A DNA stretch of 64,000 nt. It comes from a virus. Shown in pieces: positions 2,859 through 59,329 of this stretch. The translations under genes and the position numbers were made by a program. Location: the UHGV virus genome UHGV-0277313; one strand, 5' to 3'. The notes below the pieces were generated by a model, which made no database searches, was not told the DNA's origin, and saw only the letters and a program-made list of their open reading frames with translations. Positions within the stretch are counted from its first letter, which is position 1, and each line of letters starts with the position of its first letter.

Positions 2859-3311
2859 ATGGCGGATAATAAACCAGTTGCATATCGTTATGATGATAAA
2901 GGGTATTATATTGGTGAGATTACTTGTCAATTAGATCCTCTAGAATCAAAACTAGCAGGAAAGTCTATATATTTAGTTCCAGGTGAATCAACTTTAGTAA
3001 AACCTTTAAAAGGAAAAGAAGGTTTTAAAGTTAAATGGGACAGTGATTCGTATAAATGGTTTTACGAAGAAGTAATAGTAGAAAAGCCTGAAGAATATGT
3101 TCCGACTGAAGCTGAAAAACTTCAAATGGAAATTTCACAGAAGAAAGGTGAATTGTATAAATCCGATTATAAAGCAATTAAATACGCCGAAGGCTGGATT
3201 TCAGAAGAAGAGTACGCACCTGTAAAAGCTGAAAGACAAGCGATTAGAGACGAAATAAACGCTCTAGAAGCAAAGTTAGCTGAAATCAACGGGAATACAG
3301 CTCAATCTTAA
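2859..3311 (+). CDS. hypothetical protein (weak resemblance to tail-fibre assembly/chaperone C-termini)
   Basis: 150-aa ORF with SD (taggtaagaacaATG); convergent with tail-fibre gene; followed by bidirectional terminator. Confidence 0.5.
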   Translation: MADNKPVAYRYDDKGYYIGEITCQLDPLESKLAGKSIYLVPGESTLVKPLKGKEGFKVKWDSDSYKWFYEEVIVEKPEEYVPTEAEKLQMEISQKKGELYKSDYKAIKYAEGWISEEEYAPVKAERQAIRDEINALEAKLAEINGNTAQS

Positions 3312-3331
3312 TTAAATTGTTGTGTTAATTA

Positions 3332-3358
3332 GAAAGGCCGCTTTAAGCGGCCTTTCTT
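3332..3358. terminator. bidirectional intrinsic terminator between convergent genes
   Basis: perfect hairpin gaaaggccgc-ttta-gcggcctttc flanked by A-run upstream and T-run downstream. Confidence 0.8.
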
Positions 3359-3365
3359 TTTATGT

Positions 3366-6005
3366 TTATGCAATGTTGAATGTTGGATAACGTGATTTGA
3401 CATAAGGATGAATTTTGTCATCTTTATCTGTATACACGTAGAACAACTGTTTATCAGCGATTTGCGAACCACAAACCAAAGGCATATCTTCTTCAGCAAT
3501 AGGTTGCATCATTTCACCATTTGGCATTCTGAAATTGTAAATATTGATTACAATTTTTTCAGGAGCGAACAGATTGTTTTCTTCAATTTTATCAAGTGGT
3601 GAAGTATAGTCTTGACAAATGATCATGCCAGCCCATTGTGGTGTTGTATCCCAATGGTCGCATGAACAATTTGTAAAGTTCACTGTCATTGAAGTGTTTG
3701 TTCTGTTTGACAAGCGCAATACGTTTGATACATGTTCAAAGTAGCAATTATTAAAGTTAACAATTGCACCAGCTTGAGTACCAAAAATTGAAACAGCATT
3801 GTTTGTAAAGTTACCACGGAAGTTGCAATTTTCAAACAAGATGTTTTTAGCTAATTTATCACCAGCCAAACCAATTTCAATACAGTTATATAAGGTTGCA
3901 TCAATATTCATATTTCTGAAAGTAATTGTTTCAGAATCGCTGACAGCAACAACTGTATTTCCGCTAGATTTCTTGAATTCACCAGTGATTGTTGTATCAA
4001 TCATACGAGTTTCTTCAGCAGCAGAAACTTTTACACGGGCGTCGTTTGTGACTGTAGCGCCTTTTAGATCAACTGATTTACCTGTTGCACTCAATGTTGC
4101 AGCAACGTTACCTGAAATAACATAGTCTTTTGTTGTATCAGACAATGTTGTAGGTTCAGTTGTTTCAATTGTAACAGGTTCAATTGATGTTTTCGACAAT
4201 TGAGAAACACGTTCTTCAAGAGCAGTTAAGCGTGTCAAAGCGGATTCAGCTGAACCAGACGCTGATACAGCAGTTTGTTTAACTGAATTCAATTCTGATT
4301 TATCAGCTTTCAGATTGATAGAACCGTTCAAACCTTCAACTTCTGTCGTTAATTCAGCTTTATCAGCTTTTGTATTAACGGTTTCAGTTAAGGCTTCAAC
4401 ATCAGCTTTAGCAGCTTTTGTTTCTAATGTTGAATTGATACCTGAAACAGAGGATGTCAATTCATCTTTATCAGCCTTCAGAGCCAAACCAGAAGTTAAT
4501 TCTTCTTTAGAAGCGAGGCCTGAAAGATCAATACTCGCAACTTTTTCATCAACTTCAGATTTTGAATAAACTTCAGATTTTGCAGCTTTCAGTTCGACTT
4601 TTCCTGACAGTGCTTCGACTTCGGTTTTATCGGCTTTTAAAGCTAAATCTTTATCTGTTGCAATAACGTCATTGTCATTGATGGTAGCCGCGTCTTTTGA
4701 ATTCAGGTTCAAGTGAACTTTAACTGAACCAAAATCAGCAACGTCCCATTTTGACAACATAGCTAGATTTGCACCGTCACCATTTGTCATGACACCAGAA
4801 AGAGCACCATGATTTTCCATCTGAATAAATTTGCGACCTTCATAATCACTGAAAGTAACAACTTTATCTTTATTGACATCAAGCTGATTCTCGTTGAGGG
4901 TTAAGTTTTCAGACGCTGCTAATTTGTCTTGCTTTTTAGCAACTTCATCCATCGCGGCTTTTTCAGCAGCTTTAGCACGTTCAGCTTCTAGTTGTAGATC
5001 TGAAGCAACAGCGCCAACTTTTTCATTGACTTCTGTCTTTTCAGCAAATGTTGACAGATCAATTGTTTCAGAAAGTTTATCCCATTCTGAACCATCCCAT
5101 GCATAATTGGCACCAGTTGATTTAACATTGTAAACATCGCCAATTTCAGCATCAGAAGGTAAGTCATTTGTTGTTTCCACTTGACCTTTATATTTCATAA
5201 AGGAACTTGTTTTAGCATCAATTTCCGCTTTTGTGTAAGCATCGGTGATACCATAACCTTCAAGTGTTGTTGCTTTATCAGCTTTTTTGTTTAGTGTTAC
5301 TGACAGTTCAGCTTTCACAGTTTCAGCAGATGATTCAATTTGAGAAGTTGTTGTATCTGAATTCCAATAATTATCAGCAAGATTCTTTTTATCAGCATTC
5401 AAATCAGATTCGATTTTAGATAAATTTGAACCTAAAGTGTTAACTGTTGTTTGGTCAGCCTTTAGATCTAATTTTTCAGAAATAGTTGTCATTTCTGATT
5501 TGTCAGCTTTTTCAGCTAAAGAAGAATCAAGCTTGCCATCTAAATCTGAAACTGAAAGTTTAACTTCAGCAATAGCAGAAGTATTTTCAGCAACTTTCCG
5601 TTCCAATTCAGCTGTTGAACCACCACTTCCAGATTGTTCAACCCAATTAACAAACCCACCTTCAACAACAGAAAGGACTTTCCCTTCCATTCCTTCAGAA
5701 GAAGGTAAGCATTTTCCGGTTGTTGTTAAATCAGTATTTTCAGCAACATACCGACCGTCTTCTTTATACAGTTTTGTGTATGTGTTTTTGACACGAGCAC
5801 CATTACGAGCTAAATGAACTGTAATAGCAACACTGCTATCAAGTTTAATTTCACCCATATCAGATTGATAGCCTTCACGCGAAACGATCCATTTAACAAT
5901 CGTTCCTTCAGGGACTTCAATTTGATTGCGAGCAACTTCATTTAACTTAACGCTTGCGTCAGAAACGTTATCCACGAATAATTTAAACTTGCAAGTTGTA
6001 GCCAT
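3366..6005 (-). CDS. tail fibre / tailspike protein (long coiled-coil with LKADK repeats, C-terminal right-handed beta-helix-like domain)
   Basis: 879-aa ORF; repeated LKADK/ LAEKADK heptad-like segments; C-terminal NCNFRGNFTNNAVSIFG...NCYFEHV...NFTNCSCDHW typical of pectate-lyase-like beta-helix. Confidence 0.7.
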   Translation of the reverse strand: MATTCKFKLFVDNVSDASVKLNEVARNQIEVPEGTIVKWIVSREGYQSDMGEIKLDSSVAITVHLARNGARVKNTYTKLYKEDGRYVAENTDLTTTGKCLPSSEGMEGKVLSVVEGGFVNWVEQSGSGGSTAELERKVAENTSAIAEVKLSVSDLDGKLDSSLAEKADKSEMTTISEKLDLKADQTTVNTLGSNLSKIESDLNADKKNLADNYWNSDTTTSQIESSAETVKAELSVTLNKKADKATTLEGYGITDAYTKAEIDAKTSSFMKYKGQVETTNDLPSDAEIGDVYNVKSTGANYAWDGSEWDKLSETIDLSTFAEKTEVNEKVGAVASDLQLEAERAKAAEKAAMDEVAKKQDKLAASENLTLNENQLDVNKDKVVTFSDYEGRKFIQMENHGALSGVMTNGDGANLAMLSKWDVADFGSVKVHLNLNSKDAATINDNDVIATDKDLALKADKTEVEALSGKVELKAAKSEVYSKSEVDEKVASIDLSGLASKEELTSGLALKADKDELTSSVSGINSTLETKAAKADVEALTETVNTKADKAELTTEVEGLNGSINLKADKSELNSVKQTAVSASGSAESALTRLTALEERVSQLSKTSIEPVTIETTEPTTLSDTTKDYVISGNVAATLSATGKSVDLKGATVTNDARVKVSAAEETRMIDTTITGEFKKSSGNTVVAVSDSETITFRNMNIDATLYNCIEIGLAGDKLAKNILFENCNFRGNFTNNAVSIFGTQAGAIVNFNNCYFEHVSNVLRLSNRTNTSMTVNFTNCSCDHWDTTPQWAGMIICQDYTSPLDKIEENNLFAPEKIVINIYNFRMPNGEMMQPIAEEDMPLVCGSQIADKQLFYVYTDKDDKIHPYVKSRYPTFNIA

Positions 6006-6062: not shown

Positions 6063-6467
6063 TCAATCTTGCTTTAGCTTCGTTTCGTCAACTGCACCAA
6101 ATTGAATATGAGTTATTGTACCGTCATCATCAGAATAATAAACGTTTTTAATTCCAACATGCCTAATGATTTTTTCACACATAGGGCAAGGTTTTGCACA
6201 ACCAACAACTTTATCTTTAGAGTAACGATACACTAGAATTGAACAACCTTTTAGTTTATTCCAATCAACTTTTAACAGGGCAGATTGTTCAGCATGCAAA
6301 GATTCAGGCCAATGACGATGTTTCATAGGAATGCTAGAGCTACGAATGTCATTATAACCACGAGAAAAAATTCGTTTTCCTTTAAAAATAATAGCTCCAA
6401 TACGAGGGTAGCAAGTAGATTTTTTAGCTTCTTCAATAGCTGCATTAACAATAGATTGATAGATCAT
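6063..6467 (-). CDS. dCMP (cytidine/deoxycytidylate) deaminase
   Basis: 134-aa ORF with zinc-binding HAEQSAL and PCPMCEK (H[AC]E ... PCxxC) motifs of the CDA/dCMP deaminase family. Confidence 0.8.
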   Translation of the reverse strand: MIYQSIVNAAIEEAKKSTCYPRIGAIIFKGKRIFSRGYNDIRSSSIPMKHRHWPESLHAEQSALLKVDWNKLKGCSILVYRYSKDKVVGCAKPCPMCEKIIRHVGIKNVYYSDDDGTITHIQFGAVDETKLKQD

Positions 6468-6539: not shown

Positions 6540-7040
6540 TTAAATTTTATCTAAAACGTCTTCATAGCTTTTAAAAACAATATCGCTTAGTGCATCTTTT
6601 GCGTTGTAGTATGTTTTGCAATAGTCATGCTCAAAGTCAATTGGTTCATTTATTTGATGTTTGCAAAAATCTTTTGTTTTGGGTTCGTATAGAAGAAAAG
6701 TTGTAGGAAGTCTAACAACTAACATTGGAGGATTTTGTTCAGTTGCACTTTTCCATGCAAAGAATTGTACTATAAATCCTTTGTATTGTTGTTTGATAAA
6801 AGAAGACATTTCATTAAATAAATCATAGTCTGTATCAAAATAAATTGTTGTACTATCAGTGTCTTCAGTAAAGCTTTTGATTGTTTCAAAATTAGCGAAA
6901 TTGTCTTCAAAATTTAGTTCGTTAGTTAAATTGTCTTTAGAAATAGTTAGACAGATAGCTTTACCGTTAATCGCATAGTAGCTAAACAGATAATAGACGT
7001 CATCAAATTTTGATTCATTGCAAACTTTAAAATATTCCAT
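6540..7040 (-). CDS. paralog-array protein 1 (C-terminus ...FKSYEDVLDKI)
   Basis: 166-aa ORF, member of 7-gene tandem family sharing the C-terminal block AF.DPIF.NYIDVLNEI. Confidence 0.6.
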   Translation of the reverse strand: MEYFKVCNESKFDDVYYLFSYYAINGKAICLTISKDNLTNELNFEDNFANFETIKSFTEDTDSTTIYFDTDYDLFNEMSSFIKQQYKGFIVQFFAWKSATEQNPPMLVVRLPTTFLLYEPKTKDFCKHQINEPIDFEHDYCKTYYNAKDALSDIVFKSYEDVLDKI

Positions 7041-7049
7041 AAAAATCCT

Positions 7050-7529
7050 TTAAATTTCATTAAGAACATCTTGATAGCTGAACATTTCAGGTGATTTCAA
7101 TGCATCAGAAACAGTATCATAGTATTCAATGATTTTAAAATTTTCTGTATTCTTTCCAGACCATAGCGGTTTGGCATCAAAATCATTTGCTAATCTATAT
7201 ACTTGAACAGCATCAATGTCAATTATAATTATTGAAGTATGCAACAAACCAATCACAGTGTGTCCGGTATTTTTATCAAGTAATGTGCAAATTACAGGTT
7301 CAATATTATTTTCCTCTAAAGTATCGTCTAAATGTGACAGCATTTCTTTCAAGGAATTGTTGTGAATAATTTTATATTCTTTATTTGGAATTTTAGAAGG
7401 AAATATATATAGACGATTGTCGTCTATATAAAGTGCTTGAACTGTTGTTGTATCTTCTGTTTTATTAAACACTTCTAAAACATAAATAATATTTTTTGAG
7501 AAGATAATATCAAATTGTTTTATTTGCAT
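7050..7529 (-). CDS. paralog-array protein 2 (C-terminus ...FSYQDVLNEI)
   Basis: 159-aa ORF, tandem family member. Confidence 0.6.
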   Translation of the reverse strand: MQIKQFDIIFSKNIIYVLEVFNKTEDTTTVQALYIDDNRLYIFPSKIPNKEYKIIHNNSLKEMLSHLDDTLEENNIEPVICTLLDKNTGHTVIGLLHTSIIIIDIDAVQVYRLANDFDAKPLWSGKNTENFKIIEYYDTVSDALKSPEMFSYQDVLNEI

Positions 7530-7541
7530 GTCCTGTTCCTT

Positions 7542-8054
7542 TTAGATTTCGTTTAAAATGTCAATATAATTTTTAAAGATAGGATCTTGAAAGGCGTCTT
7601 CTATGTTTGTATAAAGTTTAACATAATTATTTTCATCTTGTAATTTAGATTCAGCGCTTGTTGAACTTAAGACTTCGAACTTTTTACTGTTTGGTGAATA
7701 AATTAAATATTGGTCATCAATGTTAATTAACAATTTTGGTTTACTGTATGCACTATCACAAAATACAAATACGTCAGAAGTATTAAGCTTGAATATTCTT
7801 TTATACGATTGTTGTATGTCATTCAACATTTCAACATCTGTATCAAAATCTGTTTTGACATAATCGTCCAAATGTTCGTCAGTAAAGTTTTTAATAATCC
7901 AGATGTTAGCATGGTGATAATCACGATTATTTGTTGTAAGAGAGAAGTTTAATGTGTTGTTAACTTCAACACCTTCAATAACATAAAATGTAATGAATGT
8001 GTCAAGTACATCAATAGTTTGTCTTGTTTTTGAATACTTACAATATTTTGTCAT
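7542..8054 (-). CDS. paralog-array protein 3 (N-terminus MTKYCKYSKTRQT, C-terminus NYIDILNEI)
   Basis: 170-aa ORF; first 13 codons plus upstream region identical at DNA level to gene at 9101..9604. Confidence 0.65.
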   Translation of the reverse strand: MTKYCKYSKTRQTIDVLDTFITFYVIEGVEVNNTLNFSLTTNNRDYHHANIWIIKNFTDEHLDDYVKTDFDTDVEMLNDIQQSYKRIFKLNTSDVFVFCDSAYSKPKLLINIDDQYLIYSPNSKKFEVLSSTSAESKLQDENNYVKLYTNIEDAFQDPIFKNYIDILNEI

Positions 8055-8080
8055 TGTTATATTCCTATTTAAATTTCGTT
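8017..8080. repeat. 64-bp exact direct repeat, copy A (spans a gene start, RBS and the preceding gene's end)
   Basis: tttgtcttgtttttgaatacttacaatattttgtcattgttatattcctatttaaatttcgtt identical to 9567..9630. Confidence 0.85.
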
Positions 8081-8584
8081 AAGTACATCAACATAGTTTT
8101 TAAAAATAGGATCGTTGAAAGCTTGCAGAATATCACTGTATTCTCGTATGTAATAATCTTCATTTTGAAGTTTCATGTTTAAAAGATATCGTGACGTAAA
8201 AAAGATTGTTTGTTTTTTAGGTGTATAAACTAAAGAATTGTTTTTATAATTTATAGCAATATTTGGTATACTTTTAAGTGATTCAGCATATACCATAATG
8301 TTGTTTGTATCAATATTATTTGCTTTCTTTATGGAATTTTCAAGATCTTCGAACATTTTGATGTCATTGTCAAAATCAACCTTCTGTAAATTTTCATTTG
8401 GAGTTTTAGGGTCGAAATTAAAACTTTGCGAAATGAGTAAATCATAGTAGTTATCTTTTTTATAATAAGTCAATAAAGTTTGAATTACACTACATTCGTT
8501 GTTCGTTGAAATACAATAATAGCTTTCATACATATCAACAAATTGTAAATGCTCTTCTCGATAATATTTATAAAAATTGCTCAT
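8069..8584 (-). CDS. paralog-array protein 4 (C-terminus NYVDVLNEI)
   Basis: 171-aa ORF, tandem family member. Confidence 0.6.
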   Translation of the reverse strand: MSNFYKYYREEHLQFVDMYESYYCISTNNECSVIQTLLTYYKKDNYYDLLISQSFNFDPKTPNENLQKVDFDNDIKMFEDLENSIKKANNIDTNNIMVYAESLKSIPNIAINYKNNSLVYTPKKQTIFFTSRYLLNMKLQNEDYYIREYSDILQAFNDPIFKNYVDVLNEI

Positions 8585-8593
8585 GTCAAACCT

Positions 8594-9100
8594 TTAAATT
8601 TCATCTAAAACATTTATATAACTTAAAAAGATTGGATCTTTAAAAGCATCTGAAATATCACTATATGTCTTAAAATAATCATATTGTTTATTGATTTCTT
8701 CTCGAATGTTGGCAACAAAATCCAAAATGATATTTTTATAAATTGGGGAGTATATCAAAATATCATTTTCAATAGGTATAATGATTTTAGGAGTTTCTTT
8801 CAGATCTGCCATTTGCCAGACATATACTTCATAATTCTTTATTTTATACATATCTGTATATAAACGTTGTATATCTTCAAATAATTCGACATCACTTGAA
8901 AAGTTGATTCTTTTATAATCATTATCTAAACTATTAAGAATTTGTATGTTGCTGCTAGTGTTGACAACATACCCATTAGAACCGTCAACGTATTGTGAAC
9001 ATACAAAAGCAAAACATTGTTTATCAATCACATAAAAATTTCTTACGTGATGTCCGCTTTTATTTGTATTCTCAAAAACATATTTACAAAATTTTGTCAT
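8594..9100 (-). CDS. paralog-array protein 5 (N-terminus MTKFCKY, C-terminus SYINVLDEI)
   Basis: 168-aa ORF, tandem family member. Confidence 0.6.
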   Translation of the reverse strand: MTKFCKYVFENTNKSGHHVRNFYVIDKQCFAFVCSQYVDGSNGYVVNTSSNIQILNSLDNDYKRINFSSDVELFEDIQRLYTDMYKIKNYEVYVWQMADLKETPKIIIPIENDILIYSPIYKNIILDFVANIREEINKQYDYFKTYSDISDAFKDPIFLSYINVLDEI

Positions 9101-9604
9101 TTAAATCTCGTTTAATACGTCAATGTAATTTGTGAATATTAAATCTTTTAAAGCAGTTTCAACAAAGTTGTATTTTTGATGATAGGCAATCTCATTTTCA
9201 TCAAACCATTGATCAACGACATATCCACTGACAGCATTAACATCGTCTGTTGCAGGTGTATATATAATAGCGTCACTTTGAATGAACATTATAAGTTTAG
9301 GTTTAGAATAGATATCATTGAATTGAATTACTAAATTCTCAACTGTCTTCTTTTCATAAAAGCTTTTATATTGATTTTGTAAATCAGAAAACAACTCTAT
9401 TGCATTATTAAAATCTGTTTTGTTTTTTTCATCTAAAGAGACAATAATTTCATCCGCATTTCCTGAAGTAATATTATATGTAGGAAAGACACGCTCAACA
9501 GAAAATTGTACTAAAATATATTTTTTATTAATAATATAATAGGCTGTATAATGTTTTCCTGTATTTGTTTGTCTTGTTTTTGAATACTTACAATATTTTG
9601 TCAT
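9101..9604 (-). CDS. paralog-array protein 6 (N-terminus MTKYCKYSKTRQT, C-terminus NYIDVLNEI)
   Basis: 167-aa ORF; zero-nt spacing to next paralog; shares the 64-bp repeat. Confidence 0.65.
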   Translation of the reverse strand: MTKYCKYSKTRQTNTGKHYTAYYIINKKYILVQFSVERVFPTYNITSGNADEIIVSLDEKNKTDFNNAIELFSDLQNQYKSFYEKKTVENLVIQFNDIYSKPKLIMFIQSDAIIYTPATDDVNAVSGYVVDQWFDENEIAYHQKYNFVETALKDLIFTNYIDVLNEI

Positions 9605-9630
9605 TGTTATATTCCTATTTAAATTTCGTT
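9567..9630. repeat. 64-bp exact direct repeat, copy B
   Basis: identical to 8017..8080; copies are 1550 bp (three gene units) apart. Confidence 0.85.
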
Positions 9631-10137
9631 TAAAACATCAATGTAATTTATAATAGAAGGGTCTTTGAAAGCTTCAGCAACTGTTTCATAACGTTTCAAA
9701 TATACAGCATCTTCTGTCATAAATTTAGGTATTTTGGTTGCTTTTATACTATTAACAGAATCATTCTCAAATGAATAGTAAAAACTATAATCAGTATCAT
9801 TTATTGCAAATAATATGGCAGGACGCTTGTTAATATCGGTTAAAATAACAAAAATTTGTAAAGGTAAATTTTCGAAATGTTTTTTAAACCCATTGACAAA
9901 GTCTTTAAACAATTCCTCAACATTATCAAACATGATGGTTTTATAATCTAAAAATGAAAGAGGTACATCTAGTGTAGGTGATGTATGTACGTCATATTTT
10001 AAATAATCATCTTTTAAATACTTTGTAAAAACAGATATAAATGCCGTTTTGTTAACTATGTATTTATTATATTCAGATTCTTCTTTAAATCGTGACGAAG
10101 TTGCTTCTTCATAATATTTAAAATATAGATTATTCAT
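9619..10137 (-). CDS. paralog-array protein 7 (C-terminus INYIDVLNEI)
   Basis: 172-aa ORF, tandem family member. Confidence 0.6.
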   Translation of the reverse strand: MNNLYFKYYEEATSSRFKEESEYNKYIVNKTAFISVFTKYLKDDYLKYDVHTSPTLDVPLSFLDYKTIMFDNVEELFKDFVNGFKKHFENLPLQIFVILTDINKRPAILFAINDTDYSFYYSFENDSVNSIKATKIPKFMTEDAVYLKRYETVAEAFKDPSIINYIDVLNEI

Positions 10138-39606: not shown

Positions 39607-41916
39607 ATGGAAGTTAAAACGTCGAATGTGGTTATGGAAAGCAGTGAACAGTTGCAAGAAAAACAATTTACGATTGCAACGAATGCGAAAGCGTTTGAAA
39701 TCCTGACGAGTACATTGTATAAGAATGTTCCGTCGTCAATCGTTCGGGAATTGATTTCGAATGGTTATGATGGACATGTTCGTGCGGGGAATGTCGATAA
39801 AGAAATTGAGGTACATGCCCCGTTTGTTTTTGAACCGACTTTTGAAGTTCGTGATTTTGGTTGTTCGATGGACGAAGAAACGATGATGAATGTATATACG
39901 ACATTCTTTTCATCGACCAAAAACGCGGATAACAATGAAGTCGGCGGTTTCGGGTTGGGTTGTAAATTGCCGTTTGCATATACGGATATGTTCACTATTA
40001 CAACGTATCTGAATGGCAAACAGCAAGATTATATCGCCAGCAAGAACAATGGTGTTCCGACATTGAGCAAGTTGGGAGATGCAACTGATACGTCTGAACC
40101 GAATGGCGTTAAGGTGTGTGTTCCTGTTCAAGAAGACGACATTGATGCCTTCTGTGGGGCTGTCAAGTATATGGTGAGATATTCCAAGTTTAAAATCAAA
40201 TCAAATTTGGAATGTGAAGCTGTGAAAGAATATGACAACTTCGGGTTGACAAACTTTCACAATTATGGTCAAATCACTGAAGAAGATAGATGTTTCAAAT
40301 GGAAACAGATTATCAGAGTTGGTGGTGTGCCGTATGCCTTTGACAAAAGCACGATGGAGCAAGACTTCATTGGTTGGCAAGATGTCAAGTACTTCAAGCT
40401 TGAAAAAACCTATGAGGGAAACAACGCATTGTTGCATGAAGCTTTGGCTGAATGTAATGATACGGAATTTCTTGAATGTAACATGTCGCAGCTGTTTAAC
40501 TTCAATGGCTGTTTGGATTTTGAAGTGGGTGAATTGGATATTACGGCATCGAGAGAATCCTTGCAGTATTCAAAGAAAACCCGTAAAGCGTTATTCAAAC
40601 GATTGGTTGAAGTGCAAACTGCTTTGTCGAAACGTCTGACAAAGATGTTAGATAAGTGGAACAATAACGTTGGAACGTTTCAGGAAGCGTTGGAGAAGTT
40701 AAAATACTTCAAACAAATTCAATGGGGAGCGTTTTCGTATGTTGTCAGAAACCGCCCGTTCAAATACAGATGCGGTCGTCATGAAAACAAAGTTAATTTG
40801 GATTCGTGTGACGTGTCGCTGGTTTGTTATGGGGATCAGGTGTTGAAAGAAAACGATTTGTTGAAAGGTTTGATTACGCCTAAACTTCATACGTTAAATG
40901 GAGATACAAAACGTATTCAACATTCAGCAAGATTGACGACGTTTAATCCTTGTAAGGGTTTGAAACAGATTGAGGTTTATTTGACAAATGCCCCTTTGAA
41001 ACATTCGGGCATTTCAATAAGCCAAGAAGAGATTAACTTGTTAGGTCGGTATTCGGCGTGCAAGGCAATCATTTCTGTTTCGAGTCGTTCAAACGTTAAA
41101 GAGCAAGGAGAGTGGCTGCAAAAACAGTTTGATGAAATTTGTCCAGACCTGTATAAAGTAATCACGGTTGACAAGAAAGATTGTTTCATTCCGAAAGTTG
41201 AAAAGGAAAGAAACGGTAAGACTGTCACAGTGGTTGCTGAAGACGAACGCCCGATGACGATTGCCGCCAAAGAGTTGATTGAACAGATGAAACCGATCAG
41301 CGATTGTTTTGGTCAAATCTATCTGTTCAAATCAAACAGTATTCAATATCAAGTACAACGGGTATTGGAGAGTTTGGTGATGGCAAAAGACTTAACGGGT
41401 ATTCCTGACTTAACCCCGATTCTTGAATGTGTCAAGATTCATGGAACGGCAAGAAAGATGGTTGAGAAATACACTGATATTCCTGTTGTCTTCTTTGAAG
41501 ATGAAATGGAAAACGACAGAAACGGTGATGTTATCTTCCGTCATGAATTGTTCCGTAAATTGAAACATGTCTTGCAAAGAATATGTTTCTTTATAAACAT
41601 GGATTCTGATACTGCAAAACTTGGAAGGGCTATCGTTAAATATGGCAAAGACCTTAATGTGAACATGGATACATTGAAGGTGATGGCACAATATAAGGAG
41701 ATGGCTTTCCCGAATTTGTATCTGTCGGAAGTCAATATGGATTCTGATCATGTTCAAGAGGTTTGGGTGAATGTCTGTCGGAATTGTCTTAACCGTTTGG
41801 ATAATGAACAAAGGTTCAAACTGTTGGCACAAATCTTCTTGAACTGTAGCTTCTATTTGCCGAATAAGCCGTTCAGGAAACTGATTGCAAGTTTCGGCTT
41901 GACAACGGACAGGTAA
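39607..41916 (+). CDS. GHKL-superfamily (Hsp90/MutL/histidine-kinase-like) ATPase domain protein, 769 aa
   Basis: N-box RELISNGYDG and G-box GGFGLGCK in N-terminal 160 aa; long uncharacterised C-terminal region. Confidence 0.65.
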   Translation: MEVKTSNVVMESSEQLQEKQFTIATNAKAFEILTSTLYKNVPSSIVRELISNGYDGHVRAGNVDKEIEVHAPFVFEPTFEVRDFGCSMDEETMMNVYTTFFSSTKNADNNEVGGFGLGCKLPFAYTDMFTITTYLNGKQQDYIASKNNGVPTLSKLGDATDTSEPNGVKVCVPVQEDDIDAFCGAVKYMVRYSKFKIKSNLECEAVKEYDNFGLTNFHNYGQITEEDRCFKWKQIIRVGGVPYAFDKSTMEQDFIGWQDVKYFKLEKTYEGNNALLHEALAECNDTEFLECNMSQLFNFNGCLDFEVGELDITASRESLQYSKKTRKALFKRLVEVQTALSKRLTKMLDKWNNNVGTFQEALEKLKYFKQIQWGAFSYVVRNRPFKYRCGRHENKVNLDSCDVSLVCYGDQVLKENDLLKGLITPKLHTLNGDTKRIQHSARLTTFNPCKGLKQIEVYLTNAPLKHSGISISQEEINLLGRYSACKAIISVSSRSNVKEQGEWLQKQFDEICPDLYKVITVDKKDCFIPKVEKERNGKTVTVVAEDERPMTIAAKELIEQMKPISDCFGQIYLFKSNSIQYQVQRVLESLVMAKDLTGIPDLTPILECVKIHGTARKMVEKYTDIPVVFFEDEMENDRNGDVIFRHELFRKLKHVLQRICFFINMDSDTAKLGRAIVKYGKDLNVNMDTLKVMAQYKEMAFPNLYLSEVNMDSDHVQEVWVNVCRNCLNRLDNEQRFKLLAQIFLNCSFYLPNKPFRKLIASFGLTTDR

Positions 41917-54992: not shown

Positions 54993-55577
54993 ATGATTAC
55001 ATTTAACGGATCTCAAAAACAATTTTTTAAGGCTTATCCAAAAGAAAAGAGAAGCTTGAAAGAAACATATAAGCTTATCAATTCTGCTGGTGAAATTGAA
55101 TACAAATTTATCGGTGGTCTTGGTGAGAAATGTTTCAAGAAGTTCGTAAAGAATGATACTGAGTTGAAAGAAATAGAAAACATTAAAAAGAAAGAAACCA
55201 AACCAAAAAGAAAAATACTACTAAAATGGGAAGAAAAATGGGAAGAAAAATATGGTAGAAGCTTTGATGAAATGTGGAGCGAAATGGTGTGGGAACATGG
55301 TTTCACTACATCGAATGAAGATGCGTATTCTTGTTTAAAAGATGCATATGATAATATACAGGATATCCTGACAGATGAAGAAAAAGTATGTTGTGAACAT
55401 ATTCTTGAAATATTCAAAGTTTTTGGGAAACTTCCAACAGAAGATTACTATGACTTTTTTGTAAAGGTATCAAAAAGAATAAAAAAATCTAAGATAAAGG
55501 AAAAATGGGATAAAGCTTGTGTAAGTTATGTTTACTATTATTGGGATTATCAAAACTATCTTGAAAGTAGTTATTAA
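54993..55577 (+). CDS. MIEF-family paralog 3
   Basis: MITFNGSQKQFFKAYPKEKRSLKETYKLI...GEKCFKK N-domain. Confidence 0.6.
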   Translation: MITFNGSQKQFFKAYPKEKRSLKETYKLINSAGEIEYKFIGGLGEKCFKKFVKNDTELKEIENIKKKETKPKRKILLKWEEKWEEKYGRSFDEMWSEMVWEHGFTTSNEDAYSCLKDAYDNIQDILTDEEKVCCEHILEIFKVFGKLPTEDYYDFFVKVSKRIKKSKIKEKWDKACVSYVYYYWDYQNYLESSY

Positions 55578-55598
55578 TAAAAGAAAAGGAGGCTGAAT

Positions 55599-55799
55599 AT
55601 GAAGAAATGTAAAAATTGTTGCGGAAACGTCATTGATATTGTGGAAAAGGTGCGAACTATCATAACGCCTGTTGGACACAATGAACGGCCTTTTGGTAGT
55701 GTATTTGTAGCAAGATGTCCAAATTGTCGTTCGGAATCTTCACGCTATTTGACGGAAGAAGAAGCTGAAACAAAAGGCGTTGCCGAGGTGTTTGAATAG
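55599..55799 (+). CDS. small zinc-ribbon protein
   Basis: CKNCCGN ... CPNCRSE. Confidence 0.5.
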   Translation: MKKCKNCCGNVIDIVEKVRTIITPVGHNERPFGSVFVARCPNCRSESSRYLTEEEAETKGVAEVFE

Positions 55800-55810
55800 G
55801 TAGGTAAATC

Positions 55811-55993
55811 ATGAGTAATCAACGAGATATAATTATATGGAAGCTCGACAAAGACCTTGCTAAAGCTCGCTTAGCTTTGGCTAAGATACATGTGATAATA
55901 GACAAGATTCCCTTTTGGAATGCAGATATAGCAGAAATTGAAAAAGTTCTGCAGGAGTTTTTTGAAGATGATGAAAAGGCTGAAAGGAAATGA
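55811..55993 (+). CDS. hypothetical protein
   Basis: 60-aa ORF, SD ataggtaggtaaatcATG. Confidence 0.45.
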   Translation: MSNQRDIIIWKLDKDLAKARLALAKIHVIIDKIPFWNADIAEIEKVLQEFFEDDEKAERK

Positions 55994-56307
55994 ATATGAA
56001 TTTTAACATTGGTAAACCTTTAGATGAAGTGTTAAAAGACATCGCGAACATTGCTAGAAGTTATGACGATGATAAAAAGAAGCTTCCGTTGAATAATAAG
56101 TTTCTTCAAAAGGTAACAGAATACATTGCTAATTTCACAAAAGATGAACAGTGGACTGATGCCAAAAGAGACTTGTTGTTCGATTGTTTGATTTCGCAAG
56201 CTGCATGTGAACGTCATTTTTATGATTTGATTAATGAACCGGATCTAGCAATCTTTTATTATCATATTCAATGTTCTTTATCAACTGTGAAATGTAATAT
56301 GGTATGA
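55990..56307 (+). CDS. hypothetical protein
   Basis: 105-aa ORF, ATGA overlap. Confidence 0.5.
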   Translation: MNMNFNIGKPLDEVLKDIANIARSYDDDKKKLPLNNKFLQKVTEYIANFTKDEQWTDAKRDLLFDCLISQAACERHFYDLINEPDLAIFYYHIQCSLSTVKCNMV

Positions 56308-56630
56308 AGAAACTATTGACATTGGTCTTTTTTGTTGGTATACTATGTGTATCAAATAAAGCAAGGGGTGGATGGACATCTATTCAATCTGAAATGTTTT
56401 TTGCAGGGTGTAGTGATGAATGTATCAGTGCAAGTGAGACAGTATCGGATTTAGTGAATGTACATTCATATTGTGAATGTTTCTGTCATGAGATACTTCA
56501 TAATTCTAAATCATTTTATCAAGCGAATCAATTCGTTCAGAATGCTTTAGATGGTGTTGAGAAGGAAAGAAAGCGATTCGATGAAATGATGTATCAATGT
56601 TTTGTCATTAATCAAAAAGGAGAGTTTTAA
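56304..56630 (+). CDS. secreted/lipoprotein-like Cys-containing protein
   Basis: signal-peptide-like MKKLLTLVFFVGILCVS then 8 Cys in mature part. Confidence 0.5.
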   Translation: MKKLLTLVFFVGILCVSNKARGGWTSIQSEMFFAGCSDECISASETVSDLVNVHSYCECFCHEILHNSKSFYQANQFVQNALDGVEKERKRFDEMMYQCFVINQKGEF

Positions 56631-56732
56631 ATGACAACAGAGTTTAAAGAAATGCTGATGTTTATCGGCAAGTTCAGTCTTGCATCAATTGCAGGTGGTG
56701 TTCTTGTTTCGGCAATCATTTGGTATTTGTAA
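56631..56732 (+). CDS. 33-aa hydrophobic single-TM peptide
   Basis: MTTEFKEMLMFIGKFSLASIAGGVLVSAIIWYL, SD aaaaggagagttttaaATG; below track cutoff. Confidence 0.35.
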   Translation: MTTEFKEMLMFIGKFSLASIAGGVLVSAIIWYL

Positions 56733-56758
56733 GAATAATGTGAAAGGAAGAAAAAGAG

Positions 56759-57304
56759 ATGTTTAAGATTTGGAAATTAAAACAGGAAAAACGGGAAAGA
56801 AAAATGGTACTGGAACATCGCGAAAAGATGCATAATGATTTCGTGAAGAATGAATATCAGTGTTTCGAGATGGTTCGTAATCGTGGTAAACAGTTCAGTA
56901 AAGCTATTGATGCTTTGAATATATGTTTCGTAGAAATGTGTTGGGCAGTTTATCAAAAGAACGAAAGTTTTAATGACATTTATGCATTCATCAAAGCTTT
57001 ATATAATTATACACACACATCCGATCTTGTCAAAGATATTGTCGAGCTGAATGACAAATTGTTTAAAGTTGAAAGTTTGATGGAGAAACATCTTCGTGAA
57101 ACTTCTGAACTGAAAACGAAAAAGTTGAAAGCTATTGATATTTCTGAACCGGCTGAATTGGCTGAATTGCAAGAATGGGAAAATAAACGGGAAGAAGAAT
57201 ATAATGACCTGGCAACATTGTTTCATGAAATCGATTCTTCTGTAACAGCTAAACGTTCAGCTTGTGTTGACGAAATCTTTCGTATCTTTACCCGCATGAA
57301 ATGA
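56759..57304 (+). CDS. hypothetical protein
   Basis: 181-aa ORF, SD ggaagaaaaagagATG. Confidence 0.55.
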   Translation: MFKIWKLKQEKRERKMVLEHREKMHNDFVKNEYQCFEMVRNRGKQFSKAIDALNICFVEMCWAVYQKNESFNDIYAFIKALYNYTHTSDLVKDIVELNDKLFKVESLMEKHLRETSELKTKKLKAIDISEPAELAELQEWENKREEEYNDLATLFHEIDSSVTAKRSACVDEIFRIFTRMK

Positions 57305-57311
57305 CTTTAAG

Positions 57312-57385
57312 ACTCTAGGATAGCTTCTGGGATGATTTAGGTCTAGTTATACCTGAAACATTGTCCGGCTATTCTAGAGCCTTTA
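57312..57385 (+). terminator. terminator-like structure (long-range 12-bp pairing then T-run)
   Basis: ctctaggatagc ... gctattctagag followed by cctttattttgtcttt. Confidence 0.45.
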
Positions 57386-57412
57386 TTTTGTCTTTATGAA
57401 AGGATTAGACAA

Positions 57413-57583
57413 ATGAAGAAGAAGTTGTTGTTGAGTGTAATGATTGTTATGACATGTTTTGTCACTGATGCCTATGCACAACGCGGGTGTTGCAGTTGGC
57501 ATGGTGGTGTAAGTGGTTGTACTATCAGTGGCCGTGTCATATGCAATGATGGTACGCTGTCACCGAGTTGTACGTGCAGATAG
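57413..57583 (+). CDS. secreted Cys-rich peptide precursor (signal peptide + 34-aa, 6-Cys mature peptide)
   Basis: MKKKLLLSVMIVMTCFVTDAYA | QRGCCSWHGGVSGCTISGRVICNDGTLSPSCTCR; SD aaaggattagacaaATG; below track cutoff. Confidence 0.5.
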   Translation: MKKKLLLSVMIVMTCFVTDAYAQRGCCSWHGGVSGCTISGRVICNDGTLSPSCTCR

Positions 57584-57598
57584 TGAAAGATTAATTCT

Positions 57599-57922
57599 AT
57601 GTACCTGATTAACTTCTGGACACATATGTTTGACTTCAAAGGCAATATTGGGGTTTTTGAATTCTGGATTCCTATTGTCTTTTATCACTTTGCTTTTTAT
57701 GTAACAGGATTTTTACCTGAAAATTTGTTTGAAGTCGTCGTGTCTTTTTACATCATTGGATATCTGATTGCTTCTATTTCTTCCGGTGTTCGTAGATTGC
57801 ACGATATTGACTTTTCAGGGTTCTGGATCTTTTTAGGTTTTCTTCCTGTATTTAATGTGGCTTTGACTATGATGTGGCTTTTGCCGTCTAGTGTAGTAAA
57901 AGAAAATTGTTGCATAGAATAA
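57599..57922 (+). CDS. DUF805-family inner-membrane protein
   Basis: TM helices plus signature SGVRRLHDIDFSGFW (RRLHD..SGW motif). Confidence 0.6.
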   Translation: MYLINFWTHMFDFKGNIGVFEFWIPIVFYHFAFYVTGFLPENLFEVVVSFYIIGYLIASISSGVRRLHDIDFSGFWIFLGFLPVFNVALTMMWLLPSSVVKENCCIE

Positions 57923-57960
57923 TGACTGAAGAAAAAGGGTTGTTGAAGGAGATTCGAAAT

Positions 57961-58155
57961 ATGTCTGATTATGGTGCTAAACTTCCAATTATTATTCACA
58001 TCGGACAACAGTTTAAAAAGAATGGTATTGTCTATGAAGTGAAAGCTCAAACAACATCAAGCGTGTTAATAAAAAATACGACTACAGGAAAACAGGAATG
58101 GAAACCGATTGAATCTTTGGGAGGAAATGCAGGTGGCTGTGAAATTGTTGGCTGA
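57961..58155 (+). CDS. hypothetical protein (alternative start 57922)
   Basis: SD aaggagattcgaaatATG at 57961; listed ORF extends upstream overlapping previous gene. Confidence 0.45.
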   Translation: MSDYGAKLPIIIHIGQQFKKNGIVYEVKAQTTSSVLIKNTTTGKQEWKPIESLGGNAGGCEIVG

Positions 58156-58271
58156 ATGTAAATAAAATAATAGTGAAGAAAAACTGTTGACAAAGAATAG
58201 TAATTTGTGTTTTATTATTTTTTAGGGGTTAATCGTTAACTAAATTAAATTGCTATTAGGAGGAGAATTAC

Positions 58272-58637
58272 ATGGCACATTTAAGTTTTTGTTCTAATCT
58301 GTTCATCTATTTTGTGATCGGATTTTCAACATACAAATTAGGGGTTGAAACAACTTGGTCTATTGGTTTGTTTTATCTGTCTTCAGTGTTGTTGATTATC
58401 ATGTGTGTTGAACGTGAATTGGGTGCTAAAAGGGAAGATGAATTAGAAAGGTTGTTGAAAAAGAACAACATCGACTTTTATGATGAAGACGAAGAAAACA
58501 TTAATGCACTTGAAGAAGCTGTTACTCAATTGAAAAATTTGAGAAAAACATTTAAGAAGAATAAAGAAGCAGATAAAGTTAAAGATGATAAAGATGAAGT
58601 AACGTCTGTATCTGAAGAAACTAAACAGTCAGAATAA
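58272..58637 (+). CDS. membrane protein with acidic/basic C-terminal tail
   Basis: two N-terminal TM segments; SD ttaggaggagaattacATG. Confidence 0.55.
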   Translation: MAHLSFCSNLFIYFVIGFSTYKLGVETTWSIGLFYLSSVLLIIMCVERELGAKREDELERLLKKNNIDFYDEDEENINALEEAVTQLKNLRKTFKKNKEADKVKDDKDEVTSVSEETKQSE

Positions 58638-58667
58638 CTATCTTCTGTAATCATCTATCTAAACAAC

Positions 58668-58705
58668 AAAAAGCAAGAGTGTGAAATATAACCCTTGCTT
58701 TTATT
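58668..58705 (+). terminator. intrinsic terminator
   Basis: aagcaag-agtgtgaaatataaccc-ttgctt + ttattt. Confidence 0.55.
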
Positions 58706-58721
58706 TATGGGATGAAAGGTA

Positions 58722-59012
58722 ATGTTTGACATGTCTATTTACTCTTGGTTAAAAGCTATGACATTAAAAGCAGGTCATTTGCTTAATAAAGATAATGTTC
58801 GTTTTACTGGATGGACAACTGCAAGCTCGACTTTATATTTTCGTTTGTATTATCAATACGGGAATTTTCTCAGTTATGATTATATTCTTGCTGATCCTTT
58901 GATACAACAGCTGTCTATCGAACAAATATTGAGTGATGGGATTGTTTTTAAATACGAAGATAATTTCTTAACGATAGAAGAAATAGGAAACGAAGCGTTC
59001 AATAAAATTTAG
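58722..59012 (+). CDS. hypothetical protein (C-terminus IGNEAFNKI)
   Basis: 96-aa ORF, SD gaaaggtaATG. Confidence 0.55.
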   Translation: MFDMSIYSWLKAMTLKAGHLLNKDNVRFTGWTTASSTLYFRLYYQYGNFLSYDYILADPLIQQLSIEQILSDGIVFKYEDNFLTIEEIGNEAFNKI

Positions 59013-59029: not shown

Positions 59030-59329
59030 ATGCGAATAGGCGATGATAAAATTCTTGATATCTTAAATGAAAAAGCAGCAGATATCATCATTGAAGGGTG
59101 TAAGGTTCATTTCACTAAACTGATTCAATTTAATCTTAATCAATGGTACACTGTCTTTAATTACAAAAGAGGAAAAGGCTGCTGTGAAGAGTCAGATATT
59201 ATCTATATCGATCATGCGATTATGGATACTGATGTTGATGTTTTAGAAAGAGGTGCGACTACATTTAAATTTAAAAATAATTATTTAACAATAAGTAATA
59301 TAGGAAAAGAAACCCTTAACAACATTTAA
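59030..59329 (+). CDS. hypothetical protein (C-terminus IGKETLNNI)
   Basis: 99-aa ORF, SD gaaaggaaatagcaATG. Confidence 0.55.
   Translation: MRIGDDKILDILNEKAADIIIEGCKVHFTKLIQFNLNQWYTVFNYKRGKGCCEESDIIYIDHAIMDTDVDVLERGATTFKFKNNYLTISNIGKETLNNI

Follow-up and report, generated by a model that had tools for sequence, protein, structure and literature searches.

A conserved accessory gene block of an uncultured jumbo phage encodes a predicted exported six-cysteine mini-protein with a YdcA/Dis2-type domain

A group of small genes is described here from the virus genome UHGV-0277313. The stretch analysed comprises 64,000 nucleotides (nt) and is referred to below as the window; between positions 55,990 and 57,922 it holds a compact block of plus-strand open reading frames (ORFs), namely orf105, orf108, orf33, orf181, orf56 and a gene for a DUF805 membrane protein. 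An earlier note, made from the sequence alone, had described part of this block as a cluster of secreted and membrane micro-proteins, and had proposed that it could be either a toxin-plus-immunity or an envelope-remodelling module. All the ORFs it listed are present where it placed them, with Shine-Dalgarno (SD) sequences AAGGAG before orf33 and AAAGGA before orf56. Comparisons were made across five diverged lineages: the window, three relatives from public assemblies (L084, L085 and L001), and the group L004/L005/L089. Among the products of the block, orf56 adds a phage-borne member to a family that was already known but is uncharacterised, the DUF805 protein likewise belongs to a known family, and orf108 and orf33 are orphans.

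The gene orf56 (57413..57583, plus strand) encodes a protein of 56 amino acids and has its SD sequence 8 nt from the ATG. The first 22 residues (57413-57478) form a predicted Sec signal, and the protein reads MKKKLLLSVMIVMTCFVTDAYA|QRG..., with predicted cleavage at AYA|Q; signal-peptide calls were based on n/h/c-region architecture and on the AYA|Q motif, which is kept in all five lineages. The mature part (57479-57580) consists of 34 residues and constitutes a single YdcA/Dis2-type disulfide domain, with six cysteines in the arrangement CC-x8-C-x7-C-x8-C-x-C and a net charge of about +2. The description of orf56 as a signal followed by a 34-residue six-cysteine peptide has thus been confirmed. 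A lipoprotein reading was considered and rejected, because the cysteine in the leader lies outside any lipobox and is missing from L001. An exact-sequence look-up of orf56 returned nothing on record.

Profile searches place orf56 in a large family. It matches PHROG 6000 (E 9.5e-8; profile of 56 positions) and the NCBIfam model PRK10040 (NF007462), which represents E. coli YdcA, at E 2e-9; the score against the latter, 37.5 bits, is far below the equivalog cutoff of 118. A profile-to-sequence comparison (hhalign) of the orf56 family with E. coli YdcA gave a probability of 95.5%, and the Pfam family PF27300 ("YdcA") is precomputed on some orf56 homologues, where it is recorded as weak. Searching with the single sequence returned 84 relatives, and the number of clusters reached with a profile was at least 2,168, of which the 120 best-scoring are all stand-alone "hypothetical proteins" of 73-114 residues. 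Across 85 aligned sequences, C26, C27, S28, H30, G32, C44, D46, G47, S50, P51, S52, C53 and C55 are invariant. An eight-cysteine subfamily has an additional covarying cysteine pair at positions 34 and 45, which would fit one more disulfide within a compact domain.

YdcA (b1419) is organised in the same way as orf56, being a 57-residue precursor with a Sec signal directly before a single small cysteine domain, and the two proteins have in common the core C-S-x-x-x-GG-x-x-x-C...G-(K/R)-x-x-C-N-D-G-x-x-S. YdcA differs in having only four cysteines, as it lacks the first cysteine of the CC pair and C53, and in lacking the W-H of the orf56 motif CCSWHGG. The matches support membership at the level of the YdcA superfamily; the different cysteine set and motif, together with the score far below the equivalog cutoff, mark orf56 as a distant subfamily and give no support to orthology with YdcA. 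In the literature, YdcA itself appears only as a protein predicted to be periplasmic, with no function assigned (PMC11340327).

Structural comparison leads to a protein from a very different setting. When the family profile was run against the PDB, one solved structure was matched, chain AN of 7MUC (E 4.8e-12), which is the Legionella protein Dis2 (Lpg0823). An AlphaFold2 (AF2) model of orf56, computed on the alignment of 85 sequences, contains three short strands with a core predicted local distance difference test (pLDDT) score of 89-91. Its top PDB match in Foldseek is the same chain (7muc_AN), at probability 0.99, a root-mean-square deviation of 1.1 Å over 32 columns and 47% identity. Each of the two lobes of Dis2 corresponds to one orf56-type domain: lobe 1 (residues 35-73) aligns to it with 24.5 bits and lobe 2 (residues 83-120) with 30.5 bits. 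Lobe 1 has six cysteines in the order found in orf56, with loops of 8, 8, 7 and 1 residues, compared with 8, 7, 8 and 1 in orf56. Taken together, sequence and model indicate that orf56 is a Sec-type signal fused to exactly one YdcA/Dis2 domain of about 34 residues.

Dis2 is an exported protein of two lobes with five disulfides, in which all cysteines are bonded, and it lies near the outer membrane (PMC8486379). It touches DotK, DotC and DotD, is non-essential, and its deletion has subtle effects (PMC12716638). Dis2, which has a structural role in a secretion machine, is the sole structurally characterised member of the family (PMC8486379, PMC12716638). It differs from orf56 in having a long N-terminal region and two lobes in tandem, and in forming part of the Dot/Icm secretion machine. 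No dot/icm or other type IV secretion system (T4SS) genes were found in the block or in the scanned flanking ORFs, where the setting is that of a phage. The literature treats Dis2 as Legionella-specific and without structural relatives (PMC8486379, PMC12716638), and a literature search found no paper linking it with YdcA, PF27300, DUF3761 or phage peptides. The Dis2 lobe is the domain of YdcA, of PHROG 6000 and of more than 2,000 clusters from diderm and monoderm bacteria and phages. The family thereby gains an experimentally observed fold, and Dis2 gains an evolutionary origin. This link between the Dis2 lobe, YdcA and phage peptides, not previously reported, is the most useful by-product of the analysis.

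The pattern of missing cysteines among relatives suggests how those of orf56 may be bonded. YdcA and the phage HP2 homologue described below lack C26 and C53, and lobe 2 of Dis2 lacks C36 and C55; taken with the covarying extra pair at positions 34 and 45, this makes C26-C53, C27-C44 and C36-C55 the likely disulfide pairs. Two other family relations were considered. DUF3761 (PF12587) has the sub-motifs C-x-DG-x-x-S and CS-x-HGGV, which also occur in orf56, and PF12587 is precomputed on a few family members; however, the two motifs stand in reversed order and local scans remained sub-threshold (E 0.06-0.3), so that a relation between the families would be at most remote or permuted. A hevein or type 1 chitin-binding domain, an idea suggested by a CCS-x2-G motif, found no support in the Chitin_bind_1 profile or in fold comparison.

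The block is preserved well beyond the window. The order orf105-orf108-orf33-orf181-orf56 is common to all five lineages, at amino acid identities of 28-91%. Ratios of nonsynonymous to synonymous substitution (dN/dS), estimated by the Nei-Gojobori method (NG86), are 0.08-0.37 for orf56, 0.13-0.37 for orf33, 0.25-0.32 for orf108, 0.30-0.38 for orf105, 0.17-0.52 for orf181 and 0.15 for DUF805. Over the 34 codons of mature orf56, variable sites among the five lineages number 4, 7 and 22 at codon positions 1, 2 and 3, a bias that identifies a translated frame. These five genes are real, syntenic in five lineages and under purifying selection. The earlier note had also treated as genes two ORFs of fewer than 60 codons, orf33 and orf56, and this is borne out by their retention in five lineages, by dN/dS values below 0.4 and, for orf56, by the codon-position bias. 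An intact orf56 homologue was missed by a public gene caller in two relatives, L084 and L085, and the orf33 homologue of L084 was annotated as a gene by a public pipeline.

The remaining products of the block differ in architecture. orf108 (56304..56630, plus strand) encodes a predicted exported protein of 108 residues with a signal or signal-anchor of about 20-22 residues, the h-region of which is strongly hydrophobic. It had been described as a signal-peptide protein with eight cysteines; the signal and the position hold, but seven cysteines are counted, one of them in the signal and not conserved, and six in the mature part, conserved in every lineage and found in the motifs AGCSDEC, YCECFCH and YQCF. 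The leader cysteine is neither conserved nor in a lipobox, and a lipoprotein reading was discarded for orf108 as well. The exported part, of about 85 residues, is predicted to be helical, in a low-confidence AF2 model (pLDDT 61.6). A word-indexed search of 5.8 billion clusters returned only three homologues, all members of the same clade as the window phage, and an exhaustive HMMER search of 1.84 billion representatives added one further clade member and a repetitive protein of 5,183 residues. The repetitive protein was judged an artefact, its score being inflated by its many repeats. No match to orf108 was found in Pfam, PHROG or PDB sequences, and a BFVD fold search gave nothing below E 3.5.

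orf33 (56631..56732, plus strand) starts on the base after the orf108 stop, with its SD sequence about 7 nt upstream. Its 33 residues include a C-terminal hydrophobic helix (residues 12-33) that is predicted to span the membrane, in agreement with its first description as a single-transmembrane (TM) peptide. Homologues of 33-43 residues occur in all five lineages and have the common core F.(G/C)KFS..(S/C)I...V.VS. According to these searches, orf108 and orf33 are orphans restricted to the clade of the window phage. A side observation concerns the start of orf108, where positions 56316-56344 contain a near-consensus sigma-70-like promoter, TTGACA-17-TATACT with an upstream TG (11/12 matches); across the region, sigma-70 promoter and simple terminator scans gave counts at background.

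Two further genes of the block frame this pair. The packed unit opens with orf105 (55990..56307, plus strand; 105 residues, without signal sequence), which shares an ATGA overlap between its own stop and the start of orf108; homologues of orf105 occupy the same position in L001, L004, L084 and L085 at 48-83% amino acid identity. orf181 (56759..57304, plus strand) encodes a soluble, charged and helical protein of 181 residues that closes the upstream unit. Homologues of orf181 are found in all lineages at 28-79% identity; family searches with it gave sub-threshold matches only, and PADLOC returned nothing relevant on the block, its sole match being a weak Csn2 on orf181. The gaps along orf105, orf108, orf33 and orf181 are -4, 0 and 26 nt, and these four genes form one tightly packed unit that is probably translationally coupled.

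Between this unit and orf56 lies a conserved structured spacer. The spacer proper measures 108 nt (57305-57412), and its structured part (57309..57397, plus strand) consists of a hairpin at 57309-57383 followed by an invariant U-rich block, TTTATTTTGTCTTTAT, at about 57381-57397, a motif that is unique in the window. The hairpin has a minimum free energy of -35.7 kcal/mol (z = -5.05). In an alignment of the five lineages, a small sample, 83% of its cells are paired, a share that falls to 39-51% on sliding the partners; compensatory double changes are seen in ten pairs, whereas the slid controls show 2-3. An Rfam scan of the block, spacer included, found no family, and the terminator scan missed this hairpin because its loop exceeds the scanner limit. 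From its sequence, the hairpin with its U-tract looks like a large intrinsic terminator or attenuator, or an RNA-processing site. On any of these readings orf56, with DUF805, would be expressed apart from the four upstream genes. A second, small hairpin is also possible, in which UCUUUAU pairs with AUGAAGA of the orf56 start.

Outside the clade, the orf56 family is widely distributed. A scan of representative genomes yielded 230 confirmed loci, which span gut Bacilli/"Tenericutes" metagenome-assembled genomes (MAGs), Muribaculaceae, Patescibacteria, Campylobacterota, Gammaproteobacteria, Desulfovibrio and Legionellales, and IMG/VR contains 26 viral contigs with a family member. Of the copies outside phages, the closest come from gut Bacilli/Tenericutes MAGs and also from diderms. 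Bacterial copies stand mostly among housekeeping genes. No recurrent partner emerged from clustering of 408 neighbouring proteins or from a Pfam scan of 150 immediate neighbours; among the latter no transporter or immunity family recurs and no family occurs in more than four of the 150. The most frequent neighbour families (MGDG synthase, tRNA-editing domain, radical SAM and PBP5) are each found at only 2-4 loci and mostly reflect common chromosomal synteny.

Phages and integrative elements carry the family repeatedly in accessory positions, which makes its function directly testable in tractable systems such as E. coli ydcA and HP2 lysogens of H. influenzae. One case is Haemophilus phage HP2, where an unannotated 60-residue YdcA-like ORF with signal peptide and domain (complement strand; L087 2998-3180, corresponding to about 2486-2668 of NC_003315.1) lies in the pL lysogeny operon and overlaps the stop of the cI repressor gene with its start (ATGA). 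This copy is probably expressed together with the repressor in lysogens. The ORF of HP2 and S2 (PHROG 6000) resembles orf56 in being phage-encoded, of similar length, composed of signal peptide and domain, and in accessory position; it differs in belonging to a temperate P2-like phage and to the four-cysteine YdcA type, whereas orf56 has six cysteines and is found in a jumbo phage, and no sign of lysogeny genes was seen in the window. The next gene of HP2, orf1, also encodes a signal peptide, together with a tRNA_anti-like oligonucleotide/oligosaccharide-binding (OB) fold. In a Helicobacter Mu-like prophage, a family member occupies a moron-like (accessory gene) position and precedes a secreted DNase gene.

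The interpretation held here, with slightly better than even confidence, is that these genes form an accessory block directed at the host envelope, in which orf56 contributes a YdcA/Dis2 domain, and that they are not a toxin with its immunity protein. The envelope-directed half of the earlier proposal is consistent with the evidence. The block recurs among relatives, and in the L004 lineage it has gained a lipoprotein and two extra TM micro-ORFs. Specifically, the additions in L004/L005 are a 102-residue lipoprotein with an LTGC lipobox (2905-3213), a 35-residue TM peptide (3248-3355), which is present in L001 too, and a 62-residue TM protein (4650-4838). The site is therefore evidently a home for envelope-directed genes.

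In mechanistic terms, the block proteins would be sent to the envelope of the host cell. After export, orf56 would fold into a three-stranded mini-domain held by three disulfides, a small and stable module that could bind an envelope component of the infected cell. Dis2 offers an analogy, in which the same domain serves as a small adaptor wedged between the outer-membrane lipoproteins DotC, DotD and DotK, and orf56 may act in a comparable manner. orf108, helical, with six cysteines and predicted to be exported, and the tail-anchored orf33 would probably act together as a membrane and exoplasmic pair. The most likely purpose would be a change to the cell surface or envelope from which the phage profits, through superinfection exclusion, the masking of a receptor or machine, or stabilisation of the envelope during the long infection cycle of a jumbo phage.

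T-even phages have small proteins that are exported or inserted into the membrane, and those of T4 called Sp (spackle), Imm and RI act in superinfection exclusion and lysis inhibition. They resemble the block in that they are products of small, non-essential genes of a large lytic phage with rII, carry signal or TM segments, and act in the envelope, and Sp and RI are similar to orf108 in size and in having a helical exported domain, a likeness of architecture only. The T4 proteins differ from those of the block in that no sequence or profile similarity is detectable between them. The commonest use that phages make of small non-lytic exported proteins is a change to the cell surface, during infection or in lysogeny. 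The best support for a role in exclusion or surface modification comes from the HP2 homologue, with its position overlapping the cI stop in a lysogeny operon. A specific role in superinfection exclusion or masking, which rests on such analogies, is nevertheless rather doubtful.

Several points weigh against this interpretation. The step from a binding module to exclusion or masking is analogy and not evidence, since no member of the YdcA family has an assigned function and deletion of Dis2 has subtle effects (PMC12716638). With no detectable relatives of orf108 and orf33 outside the clade, any role given to these two proteins is read purely from architecture. The excess of membrane proteins inside this single window is statistically weak and only modestly unusual: proteins with hydrophobic segments make up four of the six block ORFs of at least 50 residues, compared with 15 of 110 window-wide, which corresponds to a binomial value of about 0.004 per position, and about 0.4 such runs would be expected by chance along the window. 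Finally, "periplasm" may be the wrong term for the destination of orf56, because diderms are not the only source of the closest non-phage copies, which also come from gut Bacilli/Tenericutes MAGs.

A bolder version of the envelope reading, judged improbable, would generalise it to the whole family. Single-lobe Dis2/YdcA mini-proteins of phages would be exported into the envelope of an infected or lysogenic cell, dock near the outer membrane on lipoprotein or peptidoglycan-associated complexes, such as receptors, pili and secretion machines, and block superinfection or DNA transfer; Dis2 would be a domesticated tandem, and the hairpin would gate orf56. If this were true, Dis2 of the Dot/Icm machine would be a domesticated tandem copy of a widespread domain and not a Legionella-specific invention.

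The gene that follows orf56 introduces a different set of explanations. DUF805 (57599..57922, plus strand) begins 15 nt 3' of orf56 and encodes a predicted inner-membrane protein of 107 residues with about three TM segments. The earlier assignment to DUF805 is secure: the Pfam profile PF05656 matches with 47.0 bits against a gathering cutoff of 25.7 (E 3.9e-12), over profile positions 1-102 of 111, the RRLHD..SG.W motif is conserved in the alignment, and the protein also matches phrog_12855 ("membrane protein"). It differs from the family in being short. As DUF805 is a family without known function, membership is mechanistically uninformative.

DUF805 adjoins orf56 in the window, L085, L004 and L089, with a gap of 15-16 nt, and is absent from L001 and L084. 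L001 has a 535-bp deletion (window 57603-58137 against L001 6187) at a TGT microhomology, with a scar in which the first four nt of DUF805 (ATGT) are joined to the last codons of orf82; identity to L001 is 80% on the left side of the junction and 95% on the right side, a jump that marks a recombination mosaic. In L084 (about 6266-6285), only ATGTACCTGATTAA is left of DUF805, and everything up to orf96 has been lost, orf121 included. DUF805 is thus ancestral beside orf56 and dispensable, and it was lost twice independently with orf56 intact. Searches of about 110 family loci with tblastn and a custom hidden Markov model (HMM) found that, outside the clade, DUF805 adjoins the peptide only in L076, an integrative element of an alphaproteobacterial MAG, in which a resolvase, a 64-residue eight-cysteine YdcA-like peptide, a DUF805 protein (156 residues) and an integrase follow one another (3128-5863). 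In the stretches fetched from 22 other viral contigs that carry the DUF805 hallmark, no YdcA-like gene was present, and a profile-based viral scan with DUF805, for which poor patterns had been picked, found only one contig, already known. An obligate pair of toxin and immunity protein, or of ligand and receptor, is unlikely in view of the two deletions that kept orf56, the single pairing in L076 and the 22 contigs without linkage. A looser functional link between orf56 and DUF805 is conceivable.

These observations bear directly on the possibility that orf56 and DUF805 form a two-gene cassette, an exported ligand with its membrane partner, which moves between elements and has nothing to do with the rest of the block. 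The same order and narrow gap in three clade lineages, the independent occurrence in L076 between resolvase and integrase, and the hairpin with U-tract that sets orf56 apart from the upstream genes all favour it. However, this is one independent co-occurrence among about 100 family loci, against none on the 22 DUF805-bearing viral contigs, and DUF805 was lost twice while orf56 was not. The cassette is considered unlikely.

A role in lysis or lysis timing would bring in the next genes downstream. orf82 (57922..58155, plus strand), a soluble protein of 77 residues counted from the ATG at 57922, overlaps the DUF805 stop (TAATG); no homologue of it was found in any locus fetched, and its last codons survive in the L001 scar. 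orf121 (58272..58637, plus strand) has its own strong SD sequence and encodes two TM segments with a long charged C-terminal tail, a holin-like architecture; its identity is 97.5% in L001, 71% in L085 and 48% in L004. On this explanation the holin would be orf121; orf108 together with orf33 would serve as an antiholin or spanin-like pair, and orf56 as a peptide of regulatory or o-spanin-like type. The class-II-holin-like architecture of orf121, the likeness of orf108 to T4 RI (a protein of similar size, in which a helical exported domain likewise follows an N-terminal membrane signal), the presence of rIIA in the same window, and the lipoprotein in the block of one relative speak in its favour.

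Several findings make the lysis explanation quite unlikely. No endolysin, holin or spanin family was matched in the block or in 20 flanking ORFs, and the sole lysis-type match of orf121 was an insignificant one to an Rz-like spanin (E 0.29). The 10-kb L084 locus yielded no orf121, orf56 lacks both a lipobox and a conserved leader cysteine, the strongly hydrophobic h-region of orf108 is unlike a signal-arrest-release (SAR) domain, and the block lipoprotein is confined to one lineage. This agrees with the earlier view that the block is not a classical lysis cassette, all the more as orf121 and DUF805 are absent from relatives that keep the rest. The lysis genes may lie elsewhere, since the genome measures at least 178-314 kb and the window only 64 kb.

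The toxin-plus-immunity half of the earlier proposal would make mature orf56 a secreted antibacterial peptide, released at or before lysis, with DUF805 or orf33 as its immunity protein. A small product with a predicted Sec signal, six cysteines and a charge of about +2, encoded 15 nt from a membrane protein gene, fits this picture, as does the peptide-then-DUF805 order repeated in the unrelated element L076, and weak sub-threshold conotoxin-like matches were obtained on two homologues. Such a role is very improbable: orf56 came intact through two independent deletions of DUF805, 22 viral DUF805 loci lack the peptide and about 100 peptide loci lack DUF805. The clusters of the family number at least 2,168; many have housekeeping genes around them, no transporter or immunity neighbour recurs, and the structurally characterised homologue is a structural T4SS subunit. 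Immunity of the producer would also be of little use to a lytic phage. The related suggestion of a bacteriocin-like peptide is not supported in view of the leader, which is of the Sec type and not of the double-glycine type, and of the structural role of the family homologue. The "phage toxin" idea is thereby replaced by membership of a large uncharacterised family, a functionally modest result.

The least probable explanation is that YdcA-like peptides act as inhibitors, cofactors or anchors of exported nucleases, the phage copy modulating a periplasmic nuclease of the host: in Campylobacterota an endonuclease-I-type DNase adjoins the family gene or lies within 2.6 kb of it at four loci with otherwise different neighbours (L088, span 3863-4772; L049, span 4001-4860; L044; L054), and an Endonuclease_NS gene adjoins it at L139 (976-2109) and L140, but the association is confined to one phylum, both genes may just be cargo of mobile elements, and no nuclease is adjacent in the window, at E. 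coli ydcA or at most loci.

The envelope block has to be seen in the context of the phage that carries it. The window has a G+C content of 35%, a long run of small plus-strand ORFs and no tRNAs, and it encodes rIIA (39607-41916; PHROG 612, E 6e-88), an ATPase and several HNH or homing endonucleases. A nucleotide search of window positions 55000-59000 against 50,697 phage records found no match, the window rIIA is only about 31% identical to that of known phages, and the contigs that carry its relatives measure 178 kb (L001) and 313,762 bp (L089, IMG/VR contig UViG_3300013426_000013). The window is therefore a piece of an uncultured jumbo phage, in which the block sits in a region of small, mostly orphan accessory genes; ten flanking ORFs have zero PHROG matches. 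Strong SD sequences and the low G+C content argue against a Bacteroidota host. The contigs of L004 and L005 (CALAFU010000170.1 and CALBJM010000331.1), 49 and 68 kb long and syntenic with the window phage, are filed in MAGs labelled Melainabacteria and Erysipelotrichaceae; these labels probably reflect mis-binned phage DNA.

Other features of the window and its relatives were recorded in passing. On the minus strand at 6540-10137 stand seven tandem paralogous genes encoding 159-172 residues, with pairwise identities of 25-40% and E values down to 4e-24, and all seven products end in ...Y(I/V)DVLNEI. Downstream of the block, orf96 (58722-59012) and orf99 (59030-59329) are mutually paralogous, and the L004 lineage has additional copies. 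In L084, the closest relative, a 164-residue gene with a Cas12f1-like_TNB (TnpB-type) domain lies just 5' of the block (3383-3877).

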